Source: Rhina ancylostomus (lineage: Eukaryota). From it: 64,000 nt of DNA. The notes under the pieces were generated by a model. It saw only the letters and a program-made list of their open reading frames with translations, was not told the DNA's origin and ran no database searches. The stretch's first letter is position 1, and each line of letters begins with the position of its first letter. Location of the stretch: assembly GCA_030265395.1 (NCBI GenBank), contig JARFYF010000001.1:52794480-52858479 (forward strand), given 5' to 3'. Shown piece by piece: positions 4,014-64,000 of this stretch. The translations under genes were made by a program, and so were the position numbers.

Positions 4014-5339
4014 GGCTTTAAGTACTTTTAATAGCATGTAATACCACAGCTCCCTTCCCCATACAACACAGTACTTAAATCTGAACAAATAATCATGTGG
4101 GAAAATGTTACACTCAATGCATTTTAACAGTTAATTAAGTACGCTGAAGGGATTAGACATACATATTTAGTAACGTGGTAATAAAACCATCTGTTGGAAA
4201 ATGCCACAATAATATCCTAATGGTTTGTAACTTCATATTAAAATTTATTATTAAATTCTGTGTTAATAAGCACTTTTCTCACTGAAAATATTCCAAAAAG
4301 AAAACTATGAAATGCAAATATGTATTGGCCAAATATTTTGTATCAGCATAAATTCTTCTATTGCATTATAATAATTTTTTAGGAAAACCTAGCTTTGCAT
4401 TCTCTTTTCCAGATGCTTTCTGTACTTTTATTAAACCGGATATCCAGTTTAAACAAAAACAAATTGTTTGGTAGTTTTCATAGCAGCTGCAAGAGTGTAA
4501 TGTTACTGTTTCGAATTGGAAACCCTGCCTAATCTCATGAAGTGACTTACAGCAAATCTGAACTATGTACAGTGTGAACTATGGCTTTAGTATCATGGAC
4601 AATATTTACAAACTTAGCTCTGCATGCATATGTGTATTTCTCTTTATAGTATTTATTAAAGCCACCAAATATATTTGTTCCATTATTCAGCAGTATTTGG
4701 GAGAAATCTCATTAATGGAAACAGTGGATAGCTATGTAGAATTGTATTCTCGATTAGGGGAAATAATATTATGTCAGAGAATTAGCACAATAAGTACTGC
4801 TATTACAGCAGTAAGGTAGGACAATGGTGTGTCAAATCCTTTTTTGTGAAGTGGTTTTGTTTTATAAATAATGGATTTCAAATCACTGGTGAGAAATCAA
4901 AATCATTAGCATCTGTCTTTTGGATGACATGAGTGCCTTTAGAGCTCAACAACGGCATCCATGGGTCACGTGTACATATGTGTTGAATATCTGGCTATAT
5001 TCCTTTGCATGCCTGCATGTCAGTGAACACTGCCTAAAGTATGCAGAGCAGGCAGATCATGATTTCCATCACCATGCAATGCTGATTTGATGCCAGCACT
5101 CCCATTTTGCAGCTCATTCTTGTACAACTGAGCATGTATCTTCAGCGGGAAGGACCTTCCACCAGTGCCATTCAAAGGCATCACCCACCTCTGACTGGCT
5201 GTTCCAGTAATAATGCAAGTATTTCTATGGTTGTTTCATGCTGCACATGTCTGTAGACAGTGGAATCCACAAGTTCTAGACTACTTTTTGCTTACATTAA
5301 GAATTTTACACATATCATGTTATTGTACATTCTCCTTAA

Positions 5340-42145: not shown

Positions 42146-45100
42146 TCATTGGATCTCCAAAGTGTCTCCAAGGTGATTTTGGAGTAAACTGCACAAAACA
42201 GTCATTGAAAGGACATAGTTATATCTCAGAGACAATTATTACCATGCCAAAATTTCATTATAAATTGACGACATACTTTTGTCTATCTGATAGGTTATTT
42301 CTTCAAGGTAAAAAGTTCCAATTTAATCTTCAGCCAAGTTTCAAACCCCTATATTTAGTCTATCACAAAGGATGACTGTGTCCTTTATAAACATTGTCCA
42401 TTTCTGTCTCTACTCACATCAATTTCTATTGACAATTTCATGCTTGCTTTTGTTACATCCAGGATCAAATTTGTCTCTCAAAGCTGCCCTACACAAACTT
42501 GAATTCATCTCTTGTTTTGTTATTCACATCCATTCCATACTGATTCCTGATCATACATCTTCCTGATTGGATCATCATTCTGCATGCGTTTTGTAATAAT
42601 TTAACAGGTATCATCACGGCCTTACTTTATACTCTCTCAGGAACCTACTCTAGGCCTACATCCTAATGCAAACCACCATTCTTCCAGGTTGGGTTCTCTC
42701 TCATCCTTTTGCTCCACTATCAGAGGTTGGGACATCAGTGATTATGCCCTGCACATGGGGATTTCCCTCTGAGGCCCTTTGCCACTTTTACCTTCAAGAG
42801 CCTGGAGAAAACTTTATTCCTGCACCTCAATCAATTCTTCAAACACTCCTGTCTCCATCAGCTCAACATCAGATTCCCCCAATTTTTGACTGAATTAATA
42901 GTCACGGTGCAAACTCTACCATGAGATCGATTGTATTCAATACTCTAACCGCAAAATTATCCAAAAATATTATAGTTCCTTGTTTAATTGGTACACGAAC
43001 TAGTCTACACGAAATATTTCAGCAAAAGGAAACTTGATGGGAAACAAATTAATCTTAATGCTTTTAAAAAAAATACAGGCACCTTCAGATTGTTCAATAT
43101 TTTGACATTTGTATCCACATTTAAACGCATTGTTGCTCAGAACATTGTGAATTTCTATCCTGTCATACAGGTTTCAACATTCAGTTTACTTATTAAACTG
43201 AAGCATGCCTAACTGCAAAGAAAAACTGCAATGCACTATTTGATTAACGTAAATTTCTTCTAAAGTCTTGACCAAAATCCTCCATTATTCTCCATCACCA
43301 AAATAATTACGCAACCATTTATCTGATTTCTTTTTCGGGGACTTTGATATATGCTCATGCATTTACCTTTAAAACAACAGTGATTGCTTTTTGGAAGGTC
43401 ATTCCTCACCCGTAAATAACTCGGAAATGTTTTGAGAACATGAAGAGTTGGACTTAACCAAAATGACATGTAATTCACAATAAATTAATGCTACCCGAGT
43501 ACAGCACTTGGGTATTCTGAAACCAATGGGTCAGTCGTGTTTCCAATGCAGTACAAAATATTTGTTGGAATCTAAATACTTCTTGAAATCTCCATTTTGA
43601 AAAAAGGCGGGGTGCCCAGTCTCCGTTCAGTTGTTGTGACTGCGGTGGTACCCTTTAATTACCGTGAGGTGTCCTTGAGCGTTACTTTAAAAACTATCTA
43701 AATATTTAGGTGTTACACCTTTTTTTTCATAATTCGCAACATTTAGGAAGACATTTTGAAATTAAGTGTACAAATTCTAGTTTTCAAATATACTAGATTG
43801 ACTGACCATTAAATGCCGGACGCAGTTTATTTCTTTAAAAAGCAGCACTGCAATACACATATAAAATTAATTAAAACACTTAATTTTAATTTTTCACATC
43901 GCAAATTAATATTTAAAGAAAAACCAATATTGTTGCGATAGGACTAACTTAGCCTAAGACCTCAATTACACTGCCTGATCGGAACACGAGATTCATCCGC
44001 CTTGGGCAGGTGCCTTCCGATTATGTTTAAAACTCTTCTCCCTGGAGTTAATTGTTGAGAAGGTGAGCAGTAGCGGCCCTGTACATAAATACTTAAACAA
44101 TTACTGTTTTTTTCTGCCGTGTTGCCACGCTCAGCCATGGACTAATGCAATGTACCATGAAGTGTTGGATGCAATAAATAATCCAGCGTTTGGGGAAACC
44201 TAACGCGTAATCAAATTAACTGACAAGTAGATCTTTAAATTGAGCATTAGTTAGACTATGCCATAAGATAGAGGACTCATCGCTGCATAACTGCATTGTG
44301 TTTCTCTCCATCTTGTTCCAAATTCTAAATAACAAATGTGATGCAACCTGCAGTAATACACTGCAAACCGCTTGCTTTTCATTTGCACTGTCCCTTGAGG
44401 ACAGTTAAGCAAATATTTTAATGTGATCTTATAACCCACTTAATTACTGTAGAAAATAATTATTAGGATATGTTACTTTATTATGCTAATAATTCAGCCC
44501 TGAAACCTAATTTGTTCCTTATTTATGCCAAAAAGCCTATAAAAACACTTTGATTGTATTTCCAGACTATCATCTCGATCAAAAAATATAGCAGGTGGAA
44601 AATTACAATCACAATTAACTGTATTTTATTGCACAAAATACATGCAGGATAAAACACAAGTGGTTTATAGATAATATGGAGAACATAAAATAGCACATGA
44701 TGTGAATTTTGAGGCTGTTTTTCAAAATGTGAAACTAATAACTGTCGTGCCAAACGGATTCAACAGATTGTCGAACGGAAGTTGAACGGAAACAATCAGT
44801 TTTGTAGTGAGTTGATGTGGAAATCTGTGGAAAGAAATCGCTGCCTCTGAATGAAACCGCAAGCCGTGGACCTTTGAATGTATACTAAGAATTTCCCTAT
44901 TACACAGAAGCAGGATATTGGAATGATCAACGACCGGTTGTCCAAACAGGACACAGAAAATCCTTTATTCTCAGAGGAACATCTATCTGTTTGCTATGTC
45001 AAACGTAACAGCCCCATAGGTACACATATGGTTTACTGCCTTAGACAATCTGAAGGCTGTTTTTAAAAGAAAAAAGTTCATCAATATAAAATAGCCTAGA

Positions 45101-47327
45101 TATGTTAAAGACAATGTCAAAAACTAATGGAACAGTTCAGTATTAGGAAACGTTTATTTGGCTCATTATCCAATGAAACAATATTATACATTGGCAAAAA
45201 CAAAACAGCGTGGATAATAACCATAACTCTCTGTAAGCAAAAAAAGTTCAGTACAGAAACACTGCTAAAAAGTACGAACATTGATGCAATCTCTGCAGTT
45301 AATGTAGAATCGCACAGGTCACAGTTAAACATCCAATTATCAATGGACCTGTGATCTCTGCGATTAGATTTCGGTATAGGCAGCATGGACAATAAAAAAA
45401 TGTGCGATAATCGCACAGTGATACAAGTGCTTTAGCAGTAAAACCCTTCCCATTCTAACATTCTACTTCTTTAAATAGGTAAATTGTGAAATAAATATTG
45501 CAGTAGATATCTGTCATGTTCCACTTTTATTGTTTATACTCCCATCTGGTTAAAATGAACTTCATTTCAAGCACAACTCTATTGCACCACGAGCAAAATG
45601 ATTGCATTAATCTAGTGCTGTGGTGAAGTGAATGAGACAGACAGAGCCTCCAGTTTCATTTTTTAAAAAAATCTAACTGTAATTCATTTCTATCTACCCC
45701 GCTTACCGTCTTCTCGTATTTTCTGTACAGGCCAACCCGAGAAGCGCCTTGAGGGATCCTGGGGCAGTAAAGGCACTATGTAAATACAAGGCCTTTCTTC
45801 ATTCTTTCATATTTGGTCGTTTATGCAGAAACTAATTCTGTAGGGTAATTGCAATTAGCATTTTGCACAAAATGGGATAGGCATTTATATTTTCTTTTAC
45901 TATTGTGCACTTATACCAAACTATTTCCAAAAGGGTGTTACTGAATACATCAGTATAACTGAATCTTTCTCATTAGGCAGAAAAGCCTGCGATATTACTG
46001 GTAACGTTGCAACAGCAATCACAAGTTTGCCAGTTTACCACCTTATCAGATAAGCGTCAATGATATCCTGGTGACGTGAACGATCTGAACTTCTAGATAT
46101 CAATCGACAATTTAATGAATTTAAGCGGCCTGCAGCTATCTGCACTGGTGCATTGACTCTCATGCTGAGATGTTTTTGACATATTTGGAAACTTTTAAAA
46201 TGACTAGTCATTGATGAACGTAATTAATGCACTCAGAAAATCATACTGATTTATTTTCAATAACAAAAAATGTCTAACTAAATGTTATATTTAAACATGA
46301 CAACCCAAAAGTGATGTTCACAGCACGTTAATCTCGGCCATAAAATGACACAAACTCCCTCAACGTCGGTTTCCTGATTTATGGGTTTAACTTTGCTTCA
46401 TATTATCTAAATCTAACTAGCAATCTCTCAGGTGTTTGATTTACATTTGATAATTGATAGACAAATTGATTACAATTCACTTATTCTAACAGTAAAAAAC
46501 AATAATTAAATGACGTTTTGCATATTGGTTCAGCCAAAAAAAATTAGGTCGGTTGTTGTCGGCAATTTCACATACGTTGTTCCGTATTAATTAAAATCAT
46601 CAGAACTATATGTATGACATAAAACAGCTGTAGATCCCCATAGGTATTTTAAACCCATTTGTCTCATCATTCTCCACTTCAAAACAAATTGCTTCGCTAA
46701 GGTACCTAAATATGATTTAACCCTCTTAACTTTTGTGTACAATTTAAAATTTCAAATTATGCATGCATTTTATTTTGCAAACAGCTTCTTCAGTATTGAA
46801 CGTCGAAGGCAGAAAGAAAAAATATAATAGTTCACCCGGGAAACACTGAATATACTGTTTTGAGATGAAATGAAATTAACCACGACTAATATTTGGCTAA
46901 AATTGTAAAATAGCTTTTTTTAAAAAAAAGATTTCAGATATGCATTCCTATCCTGGTCTTAATATGCACTTATAAGTACAAACTGAAATTTCTGTTCCTG
47001 AAAATGTTTTATCCATGGTCAAAGCATGCATGAAATGAAACCCAAACTCTTCTACTAATTGCAGAAAGACATATTGTTCCTGTACTATCACTGTACTTTT
47101 GTTAAGCTTCTTATTACACCTTGATGATGTAGATATGTTTGAGCAATATGTCAAAAAAATGAGGCCAGTATATCAGGAAGTTAACAATACTGACTGACCA
47201 CCTGTTTAGTTAGAAACTATCTCAATGAAATACATTTCCTCAATAATTGTGTAGGTAGGGTCATTAACTGGTAATAGATTTTTTATATTCCACTCAATGC
47301 ATTAGGTAATCTTTAATAACTGTAAAT

Positions 47328-47427
47328 TAATTCCGGATGACTGTGAAACCCATGGAAACAAATCATACTCATTGATATAATTCCGGATGACTGTGAAACC
47401 CATGGAAACAAATCATACTCATTAATA
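47328..47427. repeat. Tandem duplication, 2 x 50 bp
   Basis: TAATTCCGGATGACTGTGAAACCCATGGAAACAAATCATACTCATT(G/A)ATA repeated with one mismatch. Confidence 0.95.
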
Positions 47428-50400
47428 TGCTTGATTCATAGTCAAAGAGAATTAAATGAAATCTAAACTATATCACTGATTGCAAAATGACAGATTATTC
47501 CTCCATTATCTTTGTACTTGTTCCGCTTCAGGTAACACCTTGATTTAATTAGGTCTGTTAGTAAATAGTAAACTAATAACCATATTGTAGATATTTTAAC
47601 AACATTTAAAACTGAAACATTTTGCTCAATCTTGATGTAAGTATTGATATTGAAAAACAGGATGAGTATATTCAGAAGACAGCAATACTGACTATTTCGT
47701 TTAGTTAGGGATTGTTCAAAATGAGATATTTTTGTTTGAAGAAAGAACATAAAAAATTGGCTAAGAAGTGGTACTGTATTACTTGGCATTCCAGACAATA
47801 CACTTGGTATGCTTTGATAAATGAAAATAAGAGTGAGTGAGTGTGTTGAGTGAATGGGGTGGGGGGGGGGAGATCAGTAGAAACAACTTGAACAATAAAA
47901 GAACCATTTAAATCGATATATTATTTATGTATGGCAAATACAAATTTATCATTCATTCAATCCAGGGCAATATTTTATCATCCCCTAAAACTGGGTCAAC
48001 AGTTTTGTACTCAAATGTACTCTTTGTACTCTTCTGTACCTCAATGTACTCTTTCTTTTTCACCACATAAACAGTTTATTGTTAGCACATTGCTGAAAAA
48101 AACTGTCCAAAAAGTTTATGGTCTAATAAAGATGTGTGATAATAATTCAAAACTGCAATCTCTGTATCGTCACCTCGTATGCTGTCTGTGAATATTTTAA
48201 CAAATGCTGTTCTTAGAAGGAAATAATTAATATATACTGGGAAGGTATGTGTGGGGTTCTGGAGATGTTTGCTGAGACAAATGGTTATCATCCTTTTCAT
48301 TGTGGGGTTCTTGAGCTGGAATTCCAGTCTCAGAGATGGTACGTCTCCAAGTGACAATATGAAAACGTGCCCTAATTCTTATGGGTGTATGTCCATATCA
48401 CACAAGTGCACATAATTCAACTGATAGTCCTTCGACACATGGAAATGAATTGTGTGAGAGAGAAATTAATAGAAGCAAATCGACGTTACACCAATCATTT
48501 TCATTGATCTGATTGATCCAAAGTTATATGGGGAATGAAATAAGACTTGAACTCTTGTACTGATTGCAATAAAGATGCACTGTTAGTAACTAAAGACGCC
48601 CGGTGTAAGAAACAGGAGGAGATCACAACTGCGCAGAAAAGGCTGCTCTTCTCATTTAAGTTCGAGGCACATTGTAGAAGGAGCTTTCCTCTGCGAAATA
48701 GTGGTGCTATGGTGCTGCTCTGACTGAGCGATTGATCAAAACAATGACAAAAGTGAGTAAAATATCCATTCTGGGCATTTCTCATTCCAAACCAAAATAA
48801 AAACCTGCTGATAGGAAGTTTTTTTTTGTCGGAGGCGGGGCGGTGGGGGGGGGTGGGGGTGGAGTGGATTTTCATTCAACAAATCACTGAAGACGTTATT
48901 AGCAGATTCGCCACTTACATTATTCTAACCTGTGTCCTGATTCAAAATGTAGATTCTCCCCGCCCCCACCCCAAGACGAGGTAGCCTGCCACTTGAAAAC
49001 AGTCAAATTAAACAAAGCACCTTTCTAAACTCTTAATCTAAATGCGCCAACTTTCTAGTGTTGCATTGTCTTGTGTTTCTTGCTATTTGATTCTTATATG
49101 ATTTAAAAAAATAAATTACAAACGATACATTTAAACGCTTTTCATTGTTTGCTGTACTGACCCACTGACCCTATAATTCTACGGATTATGATATCAATAT
49201 TAAACTATACCACAATGGATAGAAATATTGCAAATGGAAAACTGAAAGTGAATCCTATGCTGTAAATCACTTGAACTGATATTGTTATCAGTAAATCGGA
49301 ATCAATAATTTAGGAAGATTATCAAGCATATTGATAATCTGTTTATTCTAGAAATAACTGAATATTTCTTTTGAAAAACAAGCAACGCAAAAGACAGGGT
49401 TAAATGAAGCAAATAACACCTTTTTTAGAATAGATGAAGGAAATGTACAGTCTACCACTTGCATATGAACCATACCAAAGGAATATGAGGTTGGTCAAGC
49501 TGGTTCTATTTCTAAATTTTCCCAGTTCTAGTGAAAAGTCATCGATCTGAAACATGAACTCATATTTTCTCCACGGTTACGGCCCGATCTGCTGCTTATT
49601 TCCAGTTTTTTTTTACTTTAAAAGAATAGGATCAGAAAACGTAAATTATTCATTGTATCTATAAGGTAGCATTATATATCTATTAATATCAAAGTATTGA
49701 TTTATTATGTTTTTACCACCGATCAAATTTCCCTTTCTCTTTCTAACATACTATAGGTTGACAAGCTCATTTGTTATTTCTGAACATTTGAAGACTTTCA
49801 GAAAGGGAACTTCTATTAAATGGAATTGCCCAGTTTACGTACACCGTAAATAACGGCATTTGTTGCAACTCATTGGTAATCTGCATGCTGTATTGGACAA
49901 ACTCTTATCATAATTCAAATAAAGTATATTTTTAGCCCCAAGGCAAAATGCCGCCATCTCCATAATTTAACTACGTATGGCACGTAAGAATACCTTTAAT
50001 CACAGGTGTTGCAAGAGTAATTTGCTAGCTCTTTAATTTAAGGGGCTTATATGTCATTCGGGCCATTTAGCCACACGCTGTGACAGAATATGGTTTCAAG
50101 AGCTATCCTTTATATTTGTAGTCATTTCCCAGCTGGTAAATCCCAGCAACTTAATATCAGTGCTTGATTTAGTTAAATAGCAATGAAAAGCCAGAGCTTT
50201 TTTTTTCTATAGCTTGACCCAATGAAGTCGGCATCATTACAAGGAAGGATAGAACAAAGAGTCAGATATAGAATATCAAGATAAGATTAATACCCAAACT
50301 CCAACACAGCTACTAAGCTAATCATGGTCCCACTAAAATCAAATCAAATAGTTATATACCATTGTAAATATGCTGGTATCATTGAATAAATATAACCATT

Positions 50401-53400
50401 CACATATAAAAGTCTATAGAGCTATTTATCATACATGTAACTACTTTACTACCGCTTTTCAGAAAATGGTTTTGTTGATTTTGAATATTTCCCGGAAGCT
50501 CTGCATAAATTATTTTCGCATTTCGCACATAGGTTCGGGATTTTTTCTCCTTTTTTGTTAAAAGAATATATACTTTGCAATCTGTTATTTTCAAGAAACC
50601 TATTTTATTGTCTTACGTTTAAAAGTCTGATTGTGTTGCAGGCAACCTTCATCAGGTCTGTGCAGAAATGTTCCACGCTGGATATCTTTGCAAAATAGAA
50701 ATGCAATGACATTCACTCCAACAAATTCATTTTAGATCAAATTATAATGTTTATAATATCAAAAGTTGAAATTCAGGCAGACAATAATGAATGGCACATA
50801 ATTAGCCTTTCACCAACAGTGGATAAAATGGCAGTACATTTGGCCGGTCACCAACAAGAAATAAATATAATTCAGGAAACGCCACCATATAGACTCTGAC
50901 TTCCCTAAAGTAGCGATGAAATCGCGGTAGCCTCCACTCACGCATGATTCACTGTTGCAATTGCAAATATGTGTTCACAGTAACGAATTGGTTAATGAAA
51001 CATTGAAATTAAAATACTCGGAACTTCAAATCTCTGGTGTTAGAAAAATGTAGAATGTATAAACTCTAGCTATTCCACAAAATGATTTTCTTGCTTCATG
51101 TTGAAATATCACTTTAATCATAAATGATTTCCCTTAAAAACGGAATGTCGAAATCAGCATTTGTTTGGATTACGATTCACTGGGTGTTTGTGTATAAAGG
51201 ATGGTGTTCTCATTCCTTGTCAAGCTGTCAAAAGTGTTACAATACAGCTTCCTCTGGTTGTGTTCTATTTTAATTTCGGGGTCAAGTCAGGATAGCGTTA
51301 TCAGTTACTCTTTAACTACGAATCTTTGCGATCTAAGTGCATCCAAAGCATACTCCGGAGAAAGTAGCGATGATAGTGAAGCAATTTTTTAAAGGCTTTG
51401 TTTAGTAGAGTTGGTAATAGCTGGAGTTTCACGTATCATTTCTATGTGCATAATAAATAGGATGCATTCAAAAGAAGATAAAGCGTAGAATTATCGCTCT
51501 TCACTGCGCTGGCAACAATTCTTCCGACATGGTATTTTTGACAAGAAAACAAAAGCGCGTGGGATGTGCTGTGATGAACTAAGAGCCCAACTTATACAGG
51601 GAAATTATTATGTTGTATTTTGGAAGCCACTTACCAAAATGTCCAGTTTCTCACAATGTCGCCGAATTCAGCGGCATGGCTGATGAGTACCAGTATCTTC
51701 ACACACGCAGCTACTAGATGCTCCACAGCAGTAAGCACCAAGTCAGCTCCGTAGCTGGGGGAGCCAATGTGAGATTCCTGTTTCTTTTTGCATTAACTCA
51801 ACACATGCGGAAATGTGTTTACTGCAATAGATTTAGTCTAATTTCCAGCAATGCTATTTTCAAGAAAATAAATCACTATTGGACTCGTGGTCAGCTGAAG
51901 TTTTCGCTTTATGTTGCGTTGGGGGGGGGGGGGTCCGTGGGAGAGAGTTTCAACTGTAAACATCTCAGCTCACCGTTGTGCTTTTGTGATGTGGGTTGGC
52001 AAATTATTGTGCAGGAACTTCTCAAGTCCGGAATTCGTTGAAGACTTATATCGTGGCCTGATTTGATTGCTACATTAGTCAGCTCAGAAATGCAACAATG
52101 AACATCCTTTGCCAGCAATTTTATGATTGCTCCTTCACACGGCATTTCACGATTTAGTAATTTTTATCATCTCACTAGAAACAAATAGAAACAAGAAGGT
52201 GCGGCAAGTCTTGTTCGGACTTTTCAATAACTTCAGGAAAGCATCTTATTACATATATTCCCCAACATCTGAATATTTCAGTAAAACATAATTGTGCAAA
52301 TAGGATAAATAGATTTGGGGAAAATGTTTGCTTCCAAATTGTTACGGTTGGCAATTATCAATCGGTTATATGAGATTTTCAACGTATAGTTGGCCATTCG
52401 TTCAAACTGGTTGTTTTGAAGTCAGTTATTAGTCTTTCTATGGGATTGGGATAACCGTCCTTTAAATAATATTAGGCTGNNNNNNNNNNNNNNNNNNNNN
52501 NNNNNNNNNNNNNNNNNNNNNNNNNNNNNNNNNNNNNNNNNNNNNNNNNNNNNNNNNNNNNNNNNNNNNNNNNNNNNNNCTGATAAAAAGAAATCCTCAC
52601 GAGTAGTTCCAGATCAACGGGGAAAATAGATAATTCATTGGACTTCTTCTAACAGCACGATTTATTATCGAGCTAATGCTGATAATGTACGATTTGGGGG
52701 AAGTGCTGCTCCTAATGTTAACGTGCTTCCAGAGTCCATTGAAGCCAATACATGTGGAGTTGTGTTTAATATTTCCTAATTTATCCCTTCACCGGGTTAA
52801 TAAAAAAATCCTCATTGGTCAAAGAACAGAGATATGTAGATGTGGAGGTCGTCGGAATTTGAAAATGTTCTAAGTAGACATAACAGCATCTCTCCAGAAA
52901 ATTATAACGAGTGGGCTTCAATCTGGGTTGCTAAATGAAAGTAATGAAAAATGTCTCCTCCGTTCCAACCTAGCGCCTTATAAACAACGATTTGGAAGAT
53001 ACGCTTCAGAAGCATAAATAAAATTAACGGTGTTCTCGGTCCGGAAAGAAAATGCGCTGCCGCTCGCCCCTCCACACATTTGCGATAGGACCGCATGTTA
53101 AAATTGGACAAAGGCAATGGTTTTACCATCTGCATTTCGCGTATTTCATGTTAAGCAATCATCGCTAATGAACACTAGAAATGTGGAAATTGTTGCTCTT
53201 TATATAAATCGCACCTACTAGATATTAACCATGGATGCAGAAAAGTAAGAAAAAAACTGAAAGTAGTTGGTCTCAGATGGTCCGTAAATAGATGGTGACA
53301 AACATTGCTCAGTACTAAAGAGCCACGATAGCCCAGGCAGTTTGCGGAAGGCATAATCACTTTTTCTCCAATCAGGTTTTAGCCTTGCCAGGGAGCCAAG

Positions 53401-53479
53401 AGAGCCCGTCGCCAAGCCACAATGACATTCTCTGTGACGGTGACCTCTTCTATTATCCATCAATGTGGGAATGTCCTTT

Positions 53480-55050
53480 CATTCTACTGTGTGCTGAGGT
53501 AATTTCAGCAACTCATGCTCTCAGGCCACTTCTATAGCATCCGTCGGATCTATCCTTGGCCTCCTCTTCTACATCTACATATTGCACCTTGNNNNNNNNN
53601 NNNNNNNNNNNNNNNNNNNNNNNNNNNNNNNNNNNNNNNNNNNNNNNNNNNNNNNNNNNNNNNNNNNNNNNNNNNNNNNNNNNNNNNNNNNCTCTTCTAC
53701 ATCTACATATTGCACCTTGGTGACTATCCACAGACATTGGGACGGCCTCTCAATGACATTCAAACTTTGCCTCTTCGCCATCACTCTCTATTGCTCCGCT
53801 GCCTTTATATTGTCAGACAACTCATTTGATATTCTGTCACGGATTAGCTGAGATTTCCTCCAGTTAAACACTGCAAAGACAAGAACCAGCATCTGGCCCC
53901 ACAGCAAGCACTGTACTCTTGCCACCTATTTAAAATTAACCCCCCTTCACACCCCCTCAGTCTGACTGTTGCCTAAGGTAGAAACTGACTCACATCTTAT
54001 TTTACCCCGAACTGCTGATCCACAAAGATCTCCGATCACTACTTTTGTAACATTATCCACCTTCACCCCGGTAGTGGCGCAGCTGTCACTGAACCCTATG
54101 CCAGTATGTAAAATTCCAGACTCCTATCCTTTATCCTTTAAAATAAATCGATTAATCAACCACCAGTGCCTGTCTTAAATTCTGCACCAGATCCTGTTCT
54201 CTTGTCATCCTAACTTCGCCAAATAAGTCCTGGTGCCCAGTGACTTAATTCAAAGTTAGCTATTTAGTACTTAATTGGGGATAAAAGGCTTCTTCTCTAC
54301 AAAATTTATAACCTGATTCCGGATTCTTTGCCACACAATAGACTACAGGGGCCTCCAGACCCTCACTATCCTGAATCCTCTTTCTTTCTTGGCGTTATAG
54401 AGGCATAGTCATACGGCATGGAAACTGGCCCTTTAGCCCAACTGGTCCATGCCAACCAAGATTCTAAGCTTGTCCCATTTGTCTGCACTTGGCCCATATC
54501 CTTCCAAACCTCTCCTATCCATGTACCTGTCCAAGTACCTTTGCAATGTTGTTAATGCACTTGCCTCAACCACTTGCTCTGGCAGCTCATTCCATGTACT
54601 GACCACTCTCTGGGTGAAAAAGCTGCCCCTCAGGTTCCTATTAAATCTCTCCCCTCTCACCTTAAACCTATGCCCTCCGGTTCTTGATTCCCCAACCCTG
54701 GGAAAAGGACTGTGCATGTTCACCCTATCTATGTCCCCCATAATTTATACACCTCATTAAGACCACCCTTATTCTCCTACACTCCAATGAAAAAGACTTC
54801 CAACCTACTTAACCTCTCTCCATAACTCAGTCCCACAAGTCCTGGCAACATCCTTGTAAATCTCTGCACTCTTTCCGGCTTAATGGCATCTTTCCTGTAG
54901 CATTTTCTTCAGATATCGTCCATAAAAACTTGCCCCTTTCACCTCTTTCCTAACATCCTTTATTGATTCAGCACTAATTTTGATTCAATTATATCACTGT
55001 GAACAGCATTTGAGCACTTCTCTATTGCTAAAGGTAAAATATAAATGCAA
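53480..55050 (+). mobile_element. Ancient L2-like LINE remnant interrupted by a CR1
   Basis: RT-like LRPLL....YP..., FLQLNTAKT segment near 53855, L2-type tail TAAAGGTAAAATATAAATGCAA near 55030. Confidence 0.55.
54400..54900 (-). mobile_element. Relatively young CR1 (HER1-like) 3' fragment
   Basis: Open frame GGHRFKVRGERFNRNLRGSFFTQRVVSTWNELPEQVVEA...YLDRYMD plus tail GGACCAGTTGGGCTAAAGGGCCAGTTTCCATGCCGTATGAC. Confidence 0.9.
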
Positions 55051-56699: not shown

Positions 56700-56920
56700 T
56701 AAAACTGCAGTTGCTGGAAACCTGAAATAAAAACAGAAAATGTTGGAAACACTCAGAAGTTCAGTCAGCACCAGTGGAAAGAGAAGTAGATTTAATGTTT
56801 CAGTAGAAGACCCTTTGTCAGTAATAGTAGAGGGATTTCAATCTAAAATGTTAAATCTGCTTTTCTTTCCACTGATGTTGACTCACTGCTGAGCATTCAC
56901 AGCATCTTTTGTTTTTATTA
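56700..56920. mobile_element. Palindromic Penelope-terminus-derived short element
   Basis: AATAAAAACAGAAAATGTTGG...CAGTGGAAAGAGAAGTAGATTTAATGTTT pairs with AAATGTTAAATCTGCTTTTCTTTCCACTG...CAGCATCTTTTTGTTTTTATT. Confidence 0.7.
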
Positions 56921-57960: not shown

Positions 57961-58989
57961 CTAAGGTATTTTTTCAGAGGTTGAAACAATATTGGGGGTT
58001 GTGCAAGTTTTATCCAGCATCTAGGCTGTGCTGTGTTATTTGATGCTACCACAAGGTTCCAAAGCTAGAAATAAAATTGCAATTTTTGACCATACAAAGC
58101 TGAAGAAAAAAAGTGTGACTTTGAAAGGACAAAGCCTCAGCTATTCTGTTTCCTTCTCTTTACTGAGAAAAACTACAATGCACACTAGATTATTGACATG
58201 TGCAGATTTTGGCAGTGCATACATAGATGGATACATAGTTTTATGAAAGGATAAAGTTCTGTCTATTAATATGATTAAAACTAATTTTGTAAAATCCACT
58301 GCAGCTGAGATAACAGACAGATAACCTGTTTCCAGACAGTGCCAATGTTTCCCTGTAAATAGCTGCCAAAAGTTATCTGAGAATGCTGAAGGTTAGTTTG
58401 GTCTCCAATTTTATGTGTCCCTTAGGAGAAATGTGCTTTCCACCAGTTGGCACCTCACCAAACTAGCCAGCTGAGATTACAAACTCAATATAGAGAAGTG
58501 AGATGGAAGTTTTAAGGTGGTCAGTAAATGATTTCCAAAAGAACCGATACTCTATGTTACCTGTGTTACATGTTTACGACCCAAGTAGAAAACAATTATG
58601 TCTATAATTAAAATGTTTTCTCAACACATTTTCTCCTGGGAATTCTAAGTTATGAATTTTAAGTTTAAGTGATTGGAAATGTTTCATTCTCTTAACCTGA
58701 AACTGGAAATAACAGATGTGAACAAACAGGTTTAGTAAGTTGTATTACTAAGAGTAAATATGAGTATTGATTTGAACACCCAAGCAAACCGAAATAAAAT
58801 TACAGAGCAAACATTTCCTCTAAAACCCAATCTACATCTCAAATTTTAACGGGCATGCTCTTAAGAAGGTATTTACAATATTTTTATATCAATAGATTCA
58901 CTTACAGAGAAATGTAACTTTCATTATTAGCTTCCTAACAGGTTCAACATAACTTCATCTCATAACACACATTGCTAACTGCCCTTTTT

Positions 58990-59485
58990 ATTGAATCATG
59001 CAGTAACACAACACAGAAGGGAGCCATTTGGCCCATCAAGTCCATGCACCTTTTGCAAAGAACAATCCAATTATTCCCACTCTTCCATTCTTTAACACAT
59101 ACCCACAATATTTTCACCTTCAGTGTGTCTCCACTTCCCCCTCAAGTGCTACCATTGAAAACCTATATCCAAAACGTTAACAGGCAATATATTCAAATTT
59201 TAACCATCCATGCAAAGAATGTTTATCCTCATATTGCCTCTGGTCTTTTTCCCAATCCTTTCAATTTGTGTCCTCTTGTTATCAGCCCCTAGGTCACTGG
59301 AAATGGTTTATTTTTACTTGTCTATTTAAAACCATCACGGTTTTAAATACCTCCATCACATCTGGCCATCCCTGCTCCAAGAATAACCCCAGTTGTCCAC
59401 TCCATCTATGTAATTTTAACCTCTCATCCCTAGAACCATTTGACTAACTCCCTTCTGTACACCCTCCAAAACCTTCACATCCTAC
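58990..59485 (-). mobile_element. Degraded CR1 3' fragment
   Basis: Reverse tail GGAGCCATTTGGCCCATCAAGTCCATGC, colinear with 54400-54900. Confidence 0.65.
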
Positions 59486-59779
59486 TTCAGTTACCAGAAG
59501 ATTTTATTCACAACTCCCACATGGATACATAACTTGTATTAAAGTACATTAGTGTAGCACTCTTGGAAGCAGAAATAAAAGATTCACGATTACTTTATAT
59601 GTGTTAATAGCAACTATCCCCTCTAAGGTCTAATAAAAGAACAGAAATGCATTTAACAACCTCGCAACATGTCTAAATTTAGCAACCGTTTTCACTTACC
59701 TTCTTCAATTATGCCAGTAATGCACTTAGCAATGCTAAGCACCAAACCTGATAGTCCTCAGATGCCTTTCCTTTTTCAG

Positions 59780-60410
59780 GGCACCACGTGAGGGCAGTCG
59801 ATGGGCAGCAACGCACGCAACAGATAGGACGCCACCACCTACACTGGACGCCACCCACTGGGAGCACGTGGCCCCAGTGAGTGGCCTGGGAGTCGGCGCG
59901 CGCTGATGCCGAGCTGGCAATGGCCGGCGGGCGCTGGCGACCCCCGGACTGGGGGGGGGGGTCGCTCTCACCTCCCGCCCCTCCACACACACACACACAC
60001 ATCACCCACCCACCCAATCAATCACGGGCGCGCACCAGCGGGGTGTGCGCGCCAGGCCTGTCACCCGGCCAGGTGGCGGGCTGCCGCCTGCAGGCGCCTG
60101 TGCTTGGGGCGAGGGAGGGGGGGTTGGGGGGAGAAGGGGCCGGCGGCTGCCTTTGCCCCGACCGGGGGAGCAGTCGCTTTGATGACCAGAATGGTATCGC
60201 GCAGGGCGTTGTGCGCTTTTGGGCACCAACACCCTCGTGCCGCGCTGCCTGCAACACGACGGCAATAGCGAGGGATGATCATTCTGCTGGCCGAGTGTGA
60301 GTACGTTTCTTCAAAGTTTTATTTTTAGGTCACGGAATCATTGCTGCCAGGGTCGTGCGCGGCGCGCTCCCTGTTTGCGCAGGCGGGGATCACGTCCGAA
60401 AGGGACACGT
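59780..60410. promoter_or_regulatory. CpG island / candidate bidirectional promoter
   Basis: Sharp GC and CpG peak in AT-rich surroundings. CACGTG E-boxes at 59785-59790 and 59865-59870, GC box CCCGCCCC at 59974-59981, CCAAT at 60014-60018, NRF1-like TGCGCAGGCG near 60376. Outward-facing splice donors at 59699 (minus) and 60297 (plus). Confidence 0.7.
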
Positions 60411-61749
60411 TATTTTTAAGGAAGGAAAAGTGGCGACTGTTTGATGTAACGTTGATACACATTCAGAAGGATAGTAGCTGATAGCATTGGAAAGTAGTAA
60501 CATTTACGCAAAAGAAGGCGAACAATATATTCTGAGAGTTCGATTTTTTTTTGTGTGAAAGATATAGAAATACACGGGGACTACTTGAATAGGACTGAAC
60601 TGTCAAGTACCTTATGAAGTTGTGGTGACAGGGGCGATGAATGCTTCCAAATCTGAAAAGCGTTTAATAGTTGTTTGTCATTAGACAACTGAAGATCTGG
60701 CGTCTTCGTATTGGTTTCCTTCAGTGTAATCAACGCAATCTATGGATGCATATGAAATGCTATTTTTTCAAACGTTTAATGATGAAACCATTGCAGTTTG
60801 TTCATGACATTTTGCCACATGTTTGTTGTTTCTGAAACGTTCCGTGAACATCTTGAAACCTTACATTCACTTGGGCTAATAGAACTGGTGGTAAATGTTG
60901 GGATTTAAGTTAGCCCAATAGGAGTAGATAATTGCTGATAACCCTTTGACCCATTGCCCCTTTCAGTGATGGCAGTGGGTCAGTGGGTTATCAATGTTGT
61001 CAAATCTTCTGTTACATGGAGGAAGGGTTGATGGCGTTGATATATTTTGCTTCAGTGTGAGTTGCTATTATGACTCTTCCTTATATTTGGGGATCACTAA
61101 CTGCATACAGAAAGCTATCGAATTGCTTAATCTTTTCAATGCGCATACCAGTTTAGCAGTTAATCTCAGTAGGGTTGCCAGTTCTGGTCGAATAAATTCC
61201 TGGAGTTTTATCACCGGACCATCCCCTTCCGTCACCAGGTCCAAACGACCTTTTCCCCCACCTCCAATATTTTTAAAACTAATAAGAGAAAGTGATTAAT
61301 GAAATTAGGGGAGGGGGGTAAACATGATGTTTTATTTGCTTCCCTCTGGTTTGCTGATAGCAATAGCCAGAGGAGTTATTCTTCGAGACCAAGACAATTC
61401 TGGAGGTTGGCAACCCTCTCTACGAGCGCACTTTGTAAGCAATGTAAACATTACAGAACGGGTATTTTTGAATCTCTTTATGCTGTCTACTGGTTTAAAT
61501 TGCCAATTCTGAAGCCTATGATCGCCATTGAATGCTTCTCCGTAATTACTGTAATCGTTTATTGCCTGACTAACAGCATGAAGTGGGACACTAATTAAAA
61601 CGAACATCAACTTTATCACTTGATAACCTCTGGTGTAAATTAATACTTTTGTCATTAATGTAGCACAACATTATCATAAATCTAGGATGTGGTTACCATC
61701 TTATTGTACTCGTACCCTAGAAATATGCTTAGATTCGAATCCCTTTTCT

Positions 61750-63297
61750 GTCTTCCAAAAATGTACATAAAATTAGTTTGTATATTGGGCGAATTATGTG
61801 GTTGTTGGTTTACTTTGCGTATGTTAATGCAAATTTACTGTCGATAGTTATGTTGGTGGATATGTGACAGTAGATTGAGCGGTGCCCAGGCAATTTAATC
61901 AGAGTTTCTACTGAGAATGAGTGAAGAGAAAGAGGTGGAACTGTTGTGAGCAATTATTGAACAACACCCTCGTTATTCATACAATTGATCTTCCATACAG
62001 TATTTGGAAGTATATTTTCAAATAAAATCAAAATATCTCGCAAAATAATAAGTTTTAAAGTTGTATATTTAATAAAATAATTGCTTTTAATGTGAATGAT
62101 ATAATGACCCGAGCCGAATAATGTACAAAGTTGATTCTGTACAATATCTTATTCTTCATGAGTCTCTATTCTGCCATCAACCACTGCTTCTTGGACTTCA
62201 AGAAATGAGATCGCCGCGCCAGTGCGCCCATTGCAATTCCGTTATGTTCATAATCCGCACAATTTATCAGCTCCTTTCCTTTATACTGTTTTCTCTAGTG
62301 TATCTTCTCTCGTGTATTTTATTTGAGATACAGCAAAAGCAAGCACCTTTATTCACTGAGCACGTAACGTAAGTTGTATCAAATTTTGCTCTTCATAGAC
62401 ATGTTATATCATATCAACCGTGGAAAAAAATGAAAAGAAAAAGAACATTTACAAAATGAATGTCATGAACACATTATTCAACGAACAAAGCAGTCATATC
62501 AAATTCAGTTTTTACAACTTCGTAGCAACCAATTCAGTTCTCTCTATTGGCTTGCCATAGTGCAAACTGTAGCGTTGCCAAGGCAGAATTCAAACAGGGT
62601 CTTAACTCTTAACAGACTTGTGGTTGTCCTGTGTCTTTTTCCTTAAACATTGTCCACAGACAAAGTGCTTCTGTTAGCTTCGAAAGACAGTCCATCTTTC
62701 CCGTAATGCCAATGCATAAAATTCAAGTTTAGAGTAATTCAGACGACTTGATAATGTAAATGCTCTGTTTATCTGAACCAAGAGTTAAATATTGAAGTCG
62801 AACGTTATTATCTGTTGCAAATACACGAATACAGTTTATATATTGGTTGATGATCAGGTAACACTCTGCAGAGTGAAGTGTCAAGTCTATATCAGAAAAC
62901 TTCTGAACTCGTTTTAAACACATGCAATGACATTTTTTTCTATACACTGGAAACGCCTTATACCTTTAATTAATTCGTCAAATTTGGAATTGAAAATTGT
63001 TCGCGCATATTCAGATTTGGATGGTTTTATATGGGATGTTGTGGCCTTGCTAGCAATGTATACTCGCTCCTCTATTTTGAAATGGAATAGTAGACTGGAC
63101 CGTTGAATTCATTGGGTGTTTCGGAATCTCGCTGTTCTTGTTCGGCCCATGTTATTCATTTCTTTTGGGGGAGCATACACAAATACAATCTCTTCTTTGC
63201 CTATTGCACAGTACTGGGTGATGCAGAAAATCGTTGGCACGACCGTATTTCGCACGTCCANNNNNNNNNNNNNNNNNNNNNNNNNNNNNNNNNNNNN
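61750..63297 (-). other. Putative 3' UTR (about 1.5 kb) of the MSTN-like gene
   Basis: Unique, repeat-free, AT-rich sequence after the inferred stop. Blocks such as CTGCCTTGGCAACGCTACAGTTT (about 62586-62564), ATGAAGAATAA (about 62159-62149) and ACATTTTTGGAAGAC (about 61764-61750) resemble my recollection of the mammalian MSTN 3' UTR; not verified by alignment. Alternative AATAAA sites on the minus strand at 62318-62323 and 62348-62353. Confidence 0.5.
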
Positions 63298-63705
<408 letters not shown>

Positions 63706-64000
63706 TTAAAGGAAACTGCAATATTTGAACGCTTTAGGAACCGTAAAAAGAAAATGCAGAGTTGCATTTGATTTTTTTCCTTGTAGCGTTTCTCCCTGAG
63801 AGATGCTTTGGTTTTCATTAAAGCATAAAATCTAGCATGTAAACTGATAGAATCCATAAAAGCCGGCTGAGGAATTAGAAAATATATACCAGAAGTTAAA
63901 CGCAGTAGCAAGAGATCCCATGGAATGTTCCAGCTGTTGAGTAGTAGCACAGCAAACGTTTCCTCGCACGCTGACAATATTGTAATGCCTGTTAAGACGT

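Follow-up and report, generated by a model that had tools for sequence, protein, structure and literature searches.

A single-copy CpG island past the 3′ end of MSTN in Rhina ancylostomus as a candidate orphan promoter with mainly leftward non-coding output

Myostatin is a major brake on muscle growth, and DNA methylation valleys or canyons occur around developmental genes. Several described systems resemble the element reported here. Among human orphan CpG islands, 42% carry promoter evidence and 60% do so when H3K4me3 is counted, according to the available text of Illingworth et al. (2010, PMC2944787); as human orphan islands show that share, a similar prior applies to any such island being a promoter. 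Orphan islands are also described, in the accessible part of Pachano et al. (bioRxiv 10.1101/2020.08.05.237768), as boosting poised enhancers of developmental genes. Further, smAKAP (C2orf88/AKAP19) is presented as a lipid-anchored PKA-RI anchor in the available portion of PMC13025221, and the human C2orf88 model (chr2:190,744,335-191,068,210) encloses MSTN (190,920,423-190,927,455) in that of PMC13187156.

In this study, a CpG island was analysed in a window of 64,000 nucleotides, the whole stretch of R. ancylostomus DNA to which the positions below refer.

59,671-60,460, no strand: CpG island of 790 bp, GC 0.61, 61 CpG, O/E 0.83
63,261-63,678, minus strand: coding part of MSTN exon 3 (TGF-beta domain), its stop codon inside the N run 63,261-63,334

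The island is real, essentially single-copy, and lies ~3 kb past the MSTN coding end. The CpG O/E of the whole 64-kb window is 0.31, vs. 0.83 for the island. When 434 kb of contiguous genome was filtered for islands (500 bp, GC ≥0.55, CpG O/E ≥0.65), five passed, the MSTN-proximal one included, and three of the other four sit at gene starts (ORMDL1/PMS1, HIBCH/INPP1, and MFSD6). The MSTN-proximal island holds the two highest 500-bp CpG counts in the 434 kb (42 and 41), above those of the ORMDL1/PMS1 island (38 and 37), and its CpG density is 7.7 per 100 bp vs. 4.7–6.2 at local gene promoters. In length, GC, and O/E, and in not being a multicopy repeat, it agrees with the sequence definition of a CpG island; the strong island that the original prediction had placed past the MSTN 3′ end was confirmed at 59,671-60,460 as the densest in the 434 kb.

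A search of the genome with the island returned the island itself, four 30–51-bp matches at its (CA)n repeat, and one 33-bp copy elsewhere; this DNA search skips very common words, which the pattern search does not. The 33-bp copy is exact, corresponds to 60,294-60,326 (the plus donor and the following bases), and lies on another contig (L002:1501-1533, G000:C112), where it is flanked by unread sequence and terminates in a run of T; it is probably an assembly artefact or a tiny duplication. With up to two mismatches allowed, the 23-mer at the plus donor occurs at two places in 2.2 Gb, and the right flank (60,400-63,250) is single copy. Because the genome matches amount to simple repeats plus this one 33-bp copy, and the right flank is single copy, the multicopy GC-rich repeat that the original prediction had named as a possible refutation was not found.

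The gene order around the island is ORMDL1-PMS1-island-MSTN-smAKAP-HIBCH. By family search, ORMDL1, which has its own CpG island, is located on the minus strand at 52.67 Mb, and a MutL-family exon of PMS1 on the plus strand at 52.71 Mb, the last PMS1 exon ending near 52.743 Mb. The island follows at 52.854 Mb, the sole SmAKAP match in the genome at 52.888 Mb on the plus strand, and HIBCH-type exons at 52.90–52.98 Mb on the minus strand, while further right are what we take to be INPP1 and MFSD6, identified by the known gene order and the appearance of the ORFs and not by a family search. No gene was found in the 110.8 kb between the PMS1 end and the island, where Pfam was run on 83 ORFs in 42–63.3 kb and the remainder was screened for long ORFs alone. 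The minus transcript had been thought a possible 5′ exon of a distant gene; this is unlikely for the known genes, because PMS1 is on the plus strand 110.8 kb away and ORMDL1 has an island of its own.

MSTN exons 2 and 1 are beyond the window end, with the ATG at window-equivalent 69,076, which places the island ~9 kb from the MSTN start, and the exon 2-exon 3 junction was seen in run X3. Since N runs cover the stop codon (63,261-63,334) and part of exon 1 (L008 ~4,590-4,690, with a short duplicated flank), the MSTN coding sequence is incomplete in the assembly. Between MSTN and smAKAP, a further CpG island was observed (G000:C1:52,879,420-52,879,919, window-equivalent 84.9–85.4 kb). It contains a short tandem duplication and several strong donors on either strand, its surroundings are partly rich in repeats, and it may represent an additional promoter or a young element.

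Splice donors and promoter-type motifs in the island were then scored.

59,694-59,702 (GT 59,699-59,698), minus strand: putative splice donor AAG/GTAAGT, score 8.0
59,966-59,974 (GT 59,971), minus strand: second putative donor GAG/GTGAGA, score 6.1
60,294-60,302 (GT 60,297), plus strand: weak donor-like site AGT/GTGAGT, score 2.05
59,874-59,882 (GT 59,877), plus strand: second donor-like site CCA/GTGAGT, score 3.45
59,785-60,052, no strand: motif cluster with E-boxes, GCGCGC runs, a GC box, and CCAATCA

The donor matrix is approximate, and the donor P values are optimistic because the donors were chosen after inspection. The minus donor at 59,699 is present as originally described and belongs to the top 0.06% of GT sites in the 434 kb; on each strand, sites of its score level number 0.03 per kb, which gives P ~0.01 for a 300-bp stretch. 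Its motif is found once in the island vs. 0.01 times in shuffles. A second minus donor at 59,971 (P ~0.06 in 300 bp), absent from the original prediction, was also observed, and no donor in 59.4–60.8 kb outscores these two minus-strand sites (8.0 and 6.1). The predicted plus donor at 60,297-60,302 exists as well, but its score is at chance level on the matrix (2.3 sites per kb, or one every 430 bp; P ~0.5). A low score is compatible with use: the matrix gives the real MSTN exon 1 donor just 1.58. The island also has two plus-strand GTRAGT, compared with 0.11 over 2000 shuffles (P 0.004) and with ~0.3 expected from the regional density (0.40 per kb). Given minus scores of 8.0 and 6.1 and a plus score of 2.05, the bracket of outward donors is strong at its left edge, whereas its right edge is uncertain: both sites exist, but the two directions are not of equal strength.

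In the motif cluster, E-boxes are located at 59,785 and 59,865, GCGCGC runs at 59,896, 60,028, and 60,047, the GC box at 59,975, and CCAATCA at 60,014, with a G run and the (CA)n repeat at ~59,950-60,000. Tested against 2000 dinucleotide shuffles, GCGCGC was clearly enriched (5 vs. 0.57, P printed as 0.000) and the E-box marginally so (2 vs. 0.33, P 0.048), CCAATCA was not clearly enriched (1 vs. 0.10, P 0.096), and the GC box showed no enrichment (1 vs. 1.48). No match to the full NRF1 consensus was found in the island, so that the E-box, GC box, and CCAAT motifs of the original list are present and NRF1 drops out.

The island was proposed to hold no credible coding ORF, and the protein searches agree. 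Of five island ORFs and 83 ORFs (≥58 aa) in 42–63.3 kb, none reached the Pfam cut-off, and a homologue of the 139-aa plus frame was found in none of 93 candidates. An open frame of 126 codons runs from ATG 59,920 to the plus donor and crosses the G run and the CA repeat. Rfam gave no match in the island, and four sub-threshold matches elsewhere in 42–64 kb. A fold-back sequence at 56,767-56,879, with sub-threshold mir-3202 matches on both strands (38 bits vs. a cut-off of 90), is probably a small inverted-repeat element.

Strand asymmetry was evaluated around the island centre.

60,000-60,200, no strand: GC-skew flip in a 100-bp profile, negative on the left to positive on the right, a predicted divergent-start zone

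GC skew changes sign at ~60,100, with a jump of 0.48 over 1-kb flanks; the two islands between head-to-head genes reach 0.28 and 0.22, and the MFSD6 island 0.01. A jump of at least 0.45 occurs at 1.0% of 1395 overlapping positions, the island centre having been picked by eye. Combined TA+GC skew follows gene direction locally (3-kb bins of locally unique sequence, sd 0.09), with a mean of +0.053 in plus-gene bins (72% of 47 positive) and −0.094 in minus-gene bins (11% of 35 positive). Left of the island, five of six bins are negative, and all three bins in 60–69 kb are positive (~+0.09), i.e., plus-like despite the minus-strand MSTN, while beyond 69 kb the plus-like skew fades (2/6 bins ≥0). 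Single bins are within ~1 sd of zero, and residual repeats add noise because the masking took repeats seen twice within the 434 kb alone. A skew flip also marks replication origins, and the pattern fits divergent germ-line transcription, for which a replication origin would look alike. The rest of the PMS1 gap is skew-neutral (mean +0.009, 26 bins), and a long leftward germ-line transcript is therefore not evident.

Within 3 kb of the island centre, strong donors occur in the minus direction at +88 and +360, and no plus donor scoring at least 4.5 was found within 3 kb to the right. A strict filter for strong minus-strand internal exons in 42–59.7 kb returned no candidate, and no strong plus acceptor was found between 60,300 and 63,787 under the filter used. 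Poly(A) signals lie on both sides of the island.

58,987-59,508, minus strand: three AATAAA (59,503, 59,307, and 58,987), all ≤0.75 kb beyond the minus donor
61,191-62,076, plus strand: three AATAAA sequence matches (61,191, 62,021, and 62,071)
61,331-62,353, minus strand: candidate MSTN poly(A) signals, AATAAA (62,348, 62,318, 61,558, and 61,331)

In total, six AATAAA on the minus strand and three on the plus strand fall within 3 kb of the island centre. The minus trio could end an unspliced leftward RNA early. The plus signals originally listed at 62022 and 62071 exist (at 62,021 and 62,071), but the earlier one at 61,191 had been missed; MSTN ends at 62,348 or 62,318 would fall before the plus AATAAA at 62,071 in the MSTN direction. 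No RNA run was found on record as containing the stretch. When contigs from presumed RNA runs of other species (X1, X3, X4, and X6, four of nine such runs; contigs only, filtered records, 59,971-60,030 skipped as repeat) were compared with 58,800-64,000 at 80% likeness, the island was not covered, and only a short repeat near 59,000 and MSTN pieces, namely bits of exon 3 and intron 2, were matched; this outcome speaks neither for nor against transcription of the island.

These data are best explained by an orphan CpG-island promoter whose output is non-coding and runs mainly to the left, a reading to which we would give about an even chance. For it speak the densest island in 434 kb, the skew jump of 0.48, and the two best donors on the minus strand; against it, three minus AATAAA follow less than 0.75 kb beyond the minus donor and no exon candidate passed the strict filter leftward. 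Early AATAAA of this kind are the pattern of unstable antisense RNA (the U1-PAS idea). The bidirectional promoter of the original prediction fits in its island, skew flip, and minus donor, but not in its two equal directions, the plus donor being weak. On the promoter reading, the island CpGs would be preserved by lack of methylation in the germ line, with open chromatin, and Pol II would start at ~60,000-60,150 in both directions. The leftward RNA would use the donor at 59,699 (or 59,971) and run, non-coding, away from MSTN into the 110-kb PMS1 gap, with U1 binding at the minus donor presumably carrying it past the AATAAA at 59,503-58,987. The rightward RNA, antisense to MSTN, would be weaker and mostly end at 61,191 or at 62,021/62,071. 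The island probably also forms a 3′ anchor of the MSTN regulatory domain, and the roles proposed for it are not fully exclusive. As an orphan CpG-island promoter it would be one of thousands, a known and common kind of element of little weight; the interest comes from its position, as it is denser than three gene promoters and sits at the 3′ edge of a CpG-retaining zone over myostatin.

That zone comprises ~52 kb of CpG-retaining, repeat-poor, AT-rich single-copy blocks around MSTN, of which the island is the GC-rich peak.

60,461-64,000, on to window-equivalent ~73 kb, no strand: AT-rich, CpG-retaining, repeat-free flank, O/E 0.73–0.95
42,900-53,500, no strand: second CpG-retaining block, GC 0.36, O/E 0.59, nearly repeat-free

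The domain extends from 42.9 kb of the window to ~30 kb past the window end (G000:C1 ~52.89 Mb) and includes the smAKAP start. Its CpG O/E is 0.59 at 42–54 kb and highest, at 0.95, upstream of MSTN; it is 0.73 both in the stretch from the island through MSTN and at smAKAP. The neighbouring genes and the gap have 0.14–0.24. A CpG O/E of at least 0.45 was found in 18 of 27 2-kb bins in 42–96 kb (window-equivalent) vs. 6 of 176 outside, with boundaries drawn after the profile had been seen, and local repeats make up 0–1% of the core blocks vs. 6–20% of the neighbouring genes. The 43–53.5 kb block contains a single listed repeat of ~110 bp, no coding exon was found in 42,900-53,500, and this block may harbour MSTN enhancers or conserved elements. 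An exact tandem duplication of ~50 bp at 47,330-47,424 was spotted by eye inside it. Judged by its CpG content, the domain looks like a germ-line low-methylation region, which supports the island as a regulatory anchor over a source of stable RNA.

The strongest rival builds on this domain: the island may be an enhancer- or Polycomb-type orphan island, i.e., a chromatin or tethering element for the MSTN domain that makes unstable RNA alone, with the donors incidental. We consider this possible but rather unlikely. The bin contrast, the near absence of repeats in the core, the position as GC-rich peak, and the boosting role reported for orphan islands at poised enhancers all agree with it, and 4 of 13 window matches to a CTCF consensus (two mismatches allowed) are within the island, where GC content alone might explain them. 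However, such a model has no need of the perfect donor that faces outward from the island edge (P ~0.01), and the CpG density of the island exceeds that of the local gene promoters.

The plus transcript was originally proposed to run head-on into the MSTN 3′ UTR. The convergent geometry holds, while smAKAP, 33 kb downstream, gives a more specific candidate for that transcript.

L007:527-934 and 1272-1770 (G000:C1 52,887,2xx-52,888,456), plus strand: smAKAP exons, junction in X8 and X3

The smAKAP gene consists of a proximal non-coding exon, a 337-bp GT-AG intron, and a single 89-aa coding exon starting Met-Gly-Cys; the coding exon lies 33.2 kb past the plus donor at 60,297, with MSTN in between, and has an ATG-less noncoding lead. 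In two of four relatives' runs it was joined to the exon 337 bp upstream: X8, flagged as probably DNA, has a GT..AG joint to the proximal exon with 28 letters on the short side, and X3 has a loose end matching the same joint. Both smAKAP exons are covered in X4 and neither in X2. At the proximal exon, the donor is strong (6.2) and there is a separate CpG cluster (O/E 0.92), and the X3 contig is unspliced across the sole candidate acceptor before this exon (judged by eye). No match to the island was seen by eye among the best 20 of 34 loose ends of smAKAP contigs. A role of the island as main smAKAP promoter was demoted once the proximal exon junction had been seen in the relatives' contigs.

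As a separate observation, X4 joins the proximal exon (L007:932) to a different exon of >255 letters, a join that may create an ATG, with a contig depth of 70 at the alternative exon vs. 13 for the coding exon. This alternative exon was not found in the genome at ≤3 mismatches, and its best match in the 434 kb has eight.

A distal alternative smAKAP promoter, in which a plus exon ending at 60,296 would splice over MSTN and leave MSTN nested antisense in intron 1, is weakened rather than dismissed, because contigs show neither starts nor rare forms; we judge it unlikely. The only genomic SmAKAP match, on the plus strand and 33.2 kb past the plus donor, the enclosing human C2orf88 model, and the plus-like skew over 60–69 kb despite minus-strand MSTN would agree with it, as would great tit, where a CpG within 10 kb upstream of MSTN is also in the C7H2orf88 gene body (PMC11211926, in its available part). 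It has to contend with the proximal exon joined in two of four runs, whose donor is strong and which has a CpG cluster, with the lack of island matches among the best 20 of 34 loose ends, and with the fading of plus-like skew past 69 kb. Moreover, the long model in human begins ~176 kb away from MSTN rather than 3 kb, and for this reason the human C2orf88 start and the island are not equivalent positions.

A wider conjecture, which we hold to be quite improbable, would have MSTN of cartilaginous fish lie in a ~52-kb unmethylated domain overlaid by an island-to-smAKAP antisense host, with smAKAP promoter choice tuning myostatin by transcriptional interference and the human C2orf88 model being a remnant of an ancestral jawed-vertebrate arrangement. 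A literature search that covered few subscription papers returned nothing on an element of this kind, nor on C2orf88 hosting MSTN in antisense.

The original prediction had gone further in another direction, namely that a stable spliced plus RNA overlaps the MSTN 3′ UTR and, acting as a natural antisense transcript, might control myostatin; this now appears very improbable. The convergent geometry, the plus-strand GTRAGT excess (2 vs. 0.11 in shuffles), and the plus-like skew right of the island would suit it, and sense and antisense RNA are reported at the mouse Mstn promoter, i.e., at the 5′ end (PMC3390243, in the portion available). However, the idea rests on the plus donor, and the weakness of that site (2.05) undercuts it; should MSTN end at 62,318/62,348, the plus AATAAA at 61,191 would come before any overlap, and 60,300-63,787 lacks a strong plus acceptor under the filter used. 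Were a plus RNA to cross MSTN, it would suggest a way of controlling myostatin in cis that can be tested, and would make the human C2orf88 model enclosing MSTN worth examining.

That the island is repeat-derived, an unrecognised coding exon, or an assembly artefact is hardly credible any longer and already largely refuted: the 33-bp exact copy beside unread sequence and the 126-codon open frame would speak for it, but a repeat origin was ruled out by the near-unique genome matches (the remaining four, of 30–51 bp, at the (CA)n repeat; the donor 23-mer twice in 2.2 Gb) and the single-copy right flank, and a coding exon by the lack of any Pfam match over the cut-off or homologue, the open frame spanning the G run and the CA repeat; nor did the island match Rfam.

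Compared with known systems, the candidate promoter is closest to the orphan CpG-island promoters of Illingworth et al. (2010, PMC2944787), being an island away from an annotated gene start with promoter-like features; in the available text, the mammalian ones are defined by unmethylated DNA, H3K4me3, Pol II, and CAGE, whereas the island here is read from sequence alone. Similar to the head-to-head islands of ORMDL1/PMS1 and HIBCH/INPP1, it has a comparable size and CpG O/E and a negative-to-positive skew flip, but those islands drive protein-coding genes, and no coding exon was found either way at the MSTN-proximal one. Like the poised-enhancer orphan islands in the accessible part of Pachano et al. 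(bioRxiv 10.1101/2020.08.05.237768), it is near a developmental signalling gene in CpG-retaining DNA; in contrast to them, it lies ~9 kb from the MSTN start and carries a consensus splice donor, and the likeness is a sequence-only reading. The human long C2orf88 model, as given in the available portion of its source, shares the gene order and strands and starts 3′ of MSTN, so that its RNA would pass antisense through MSTN, but that start is ~176 kb from MSTN, whereas the island is 3 kb from the stop codon, and the relatives' contigs show a proximal smAKAP exon. The surrounding domain resembles DNA methylation valleys or canyons in that sequence which retains CpGs and is poor in repeats extends over tens of kb around a signalling gene, and differs from them in being recognised by CpG content and in being broken by repeat-rich, CpG-poor blocks.
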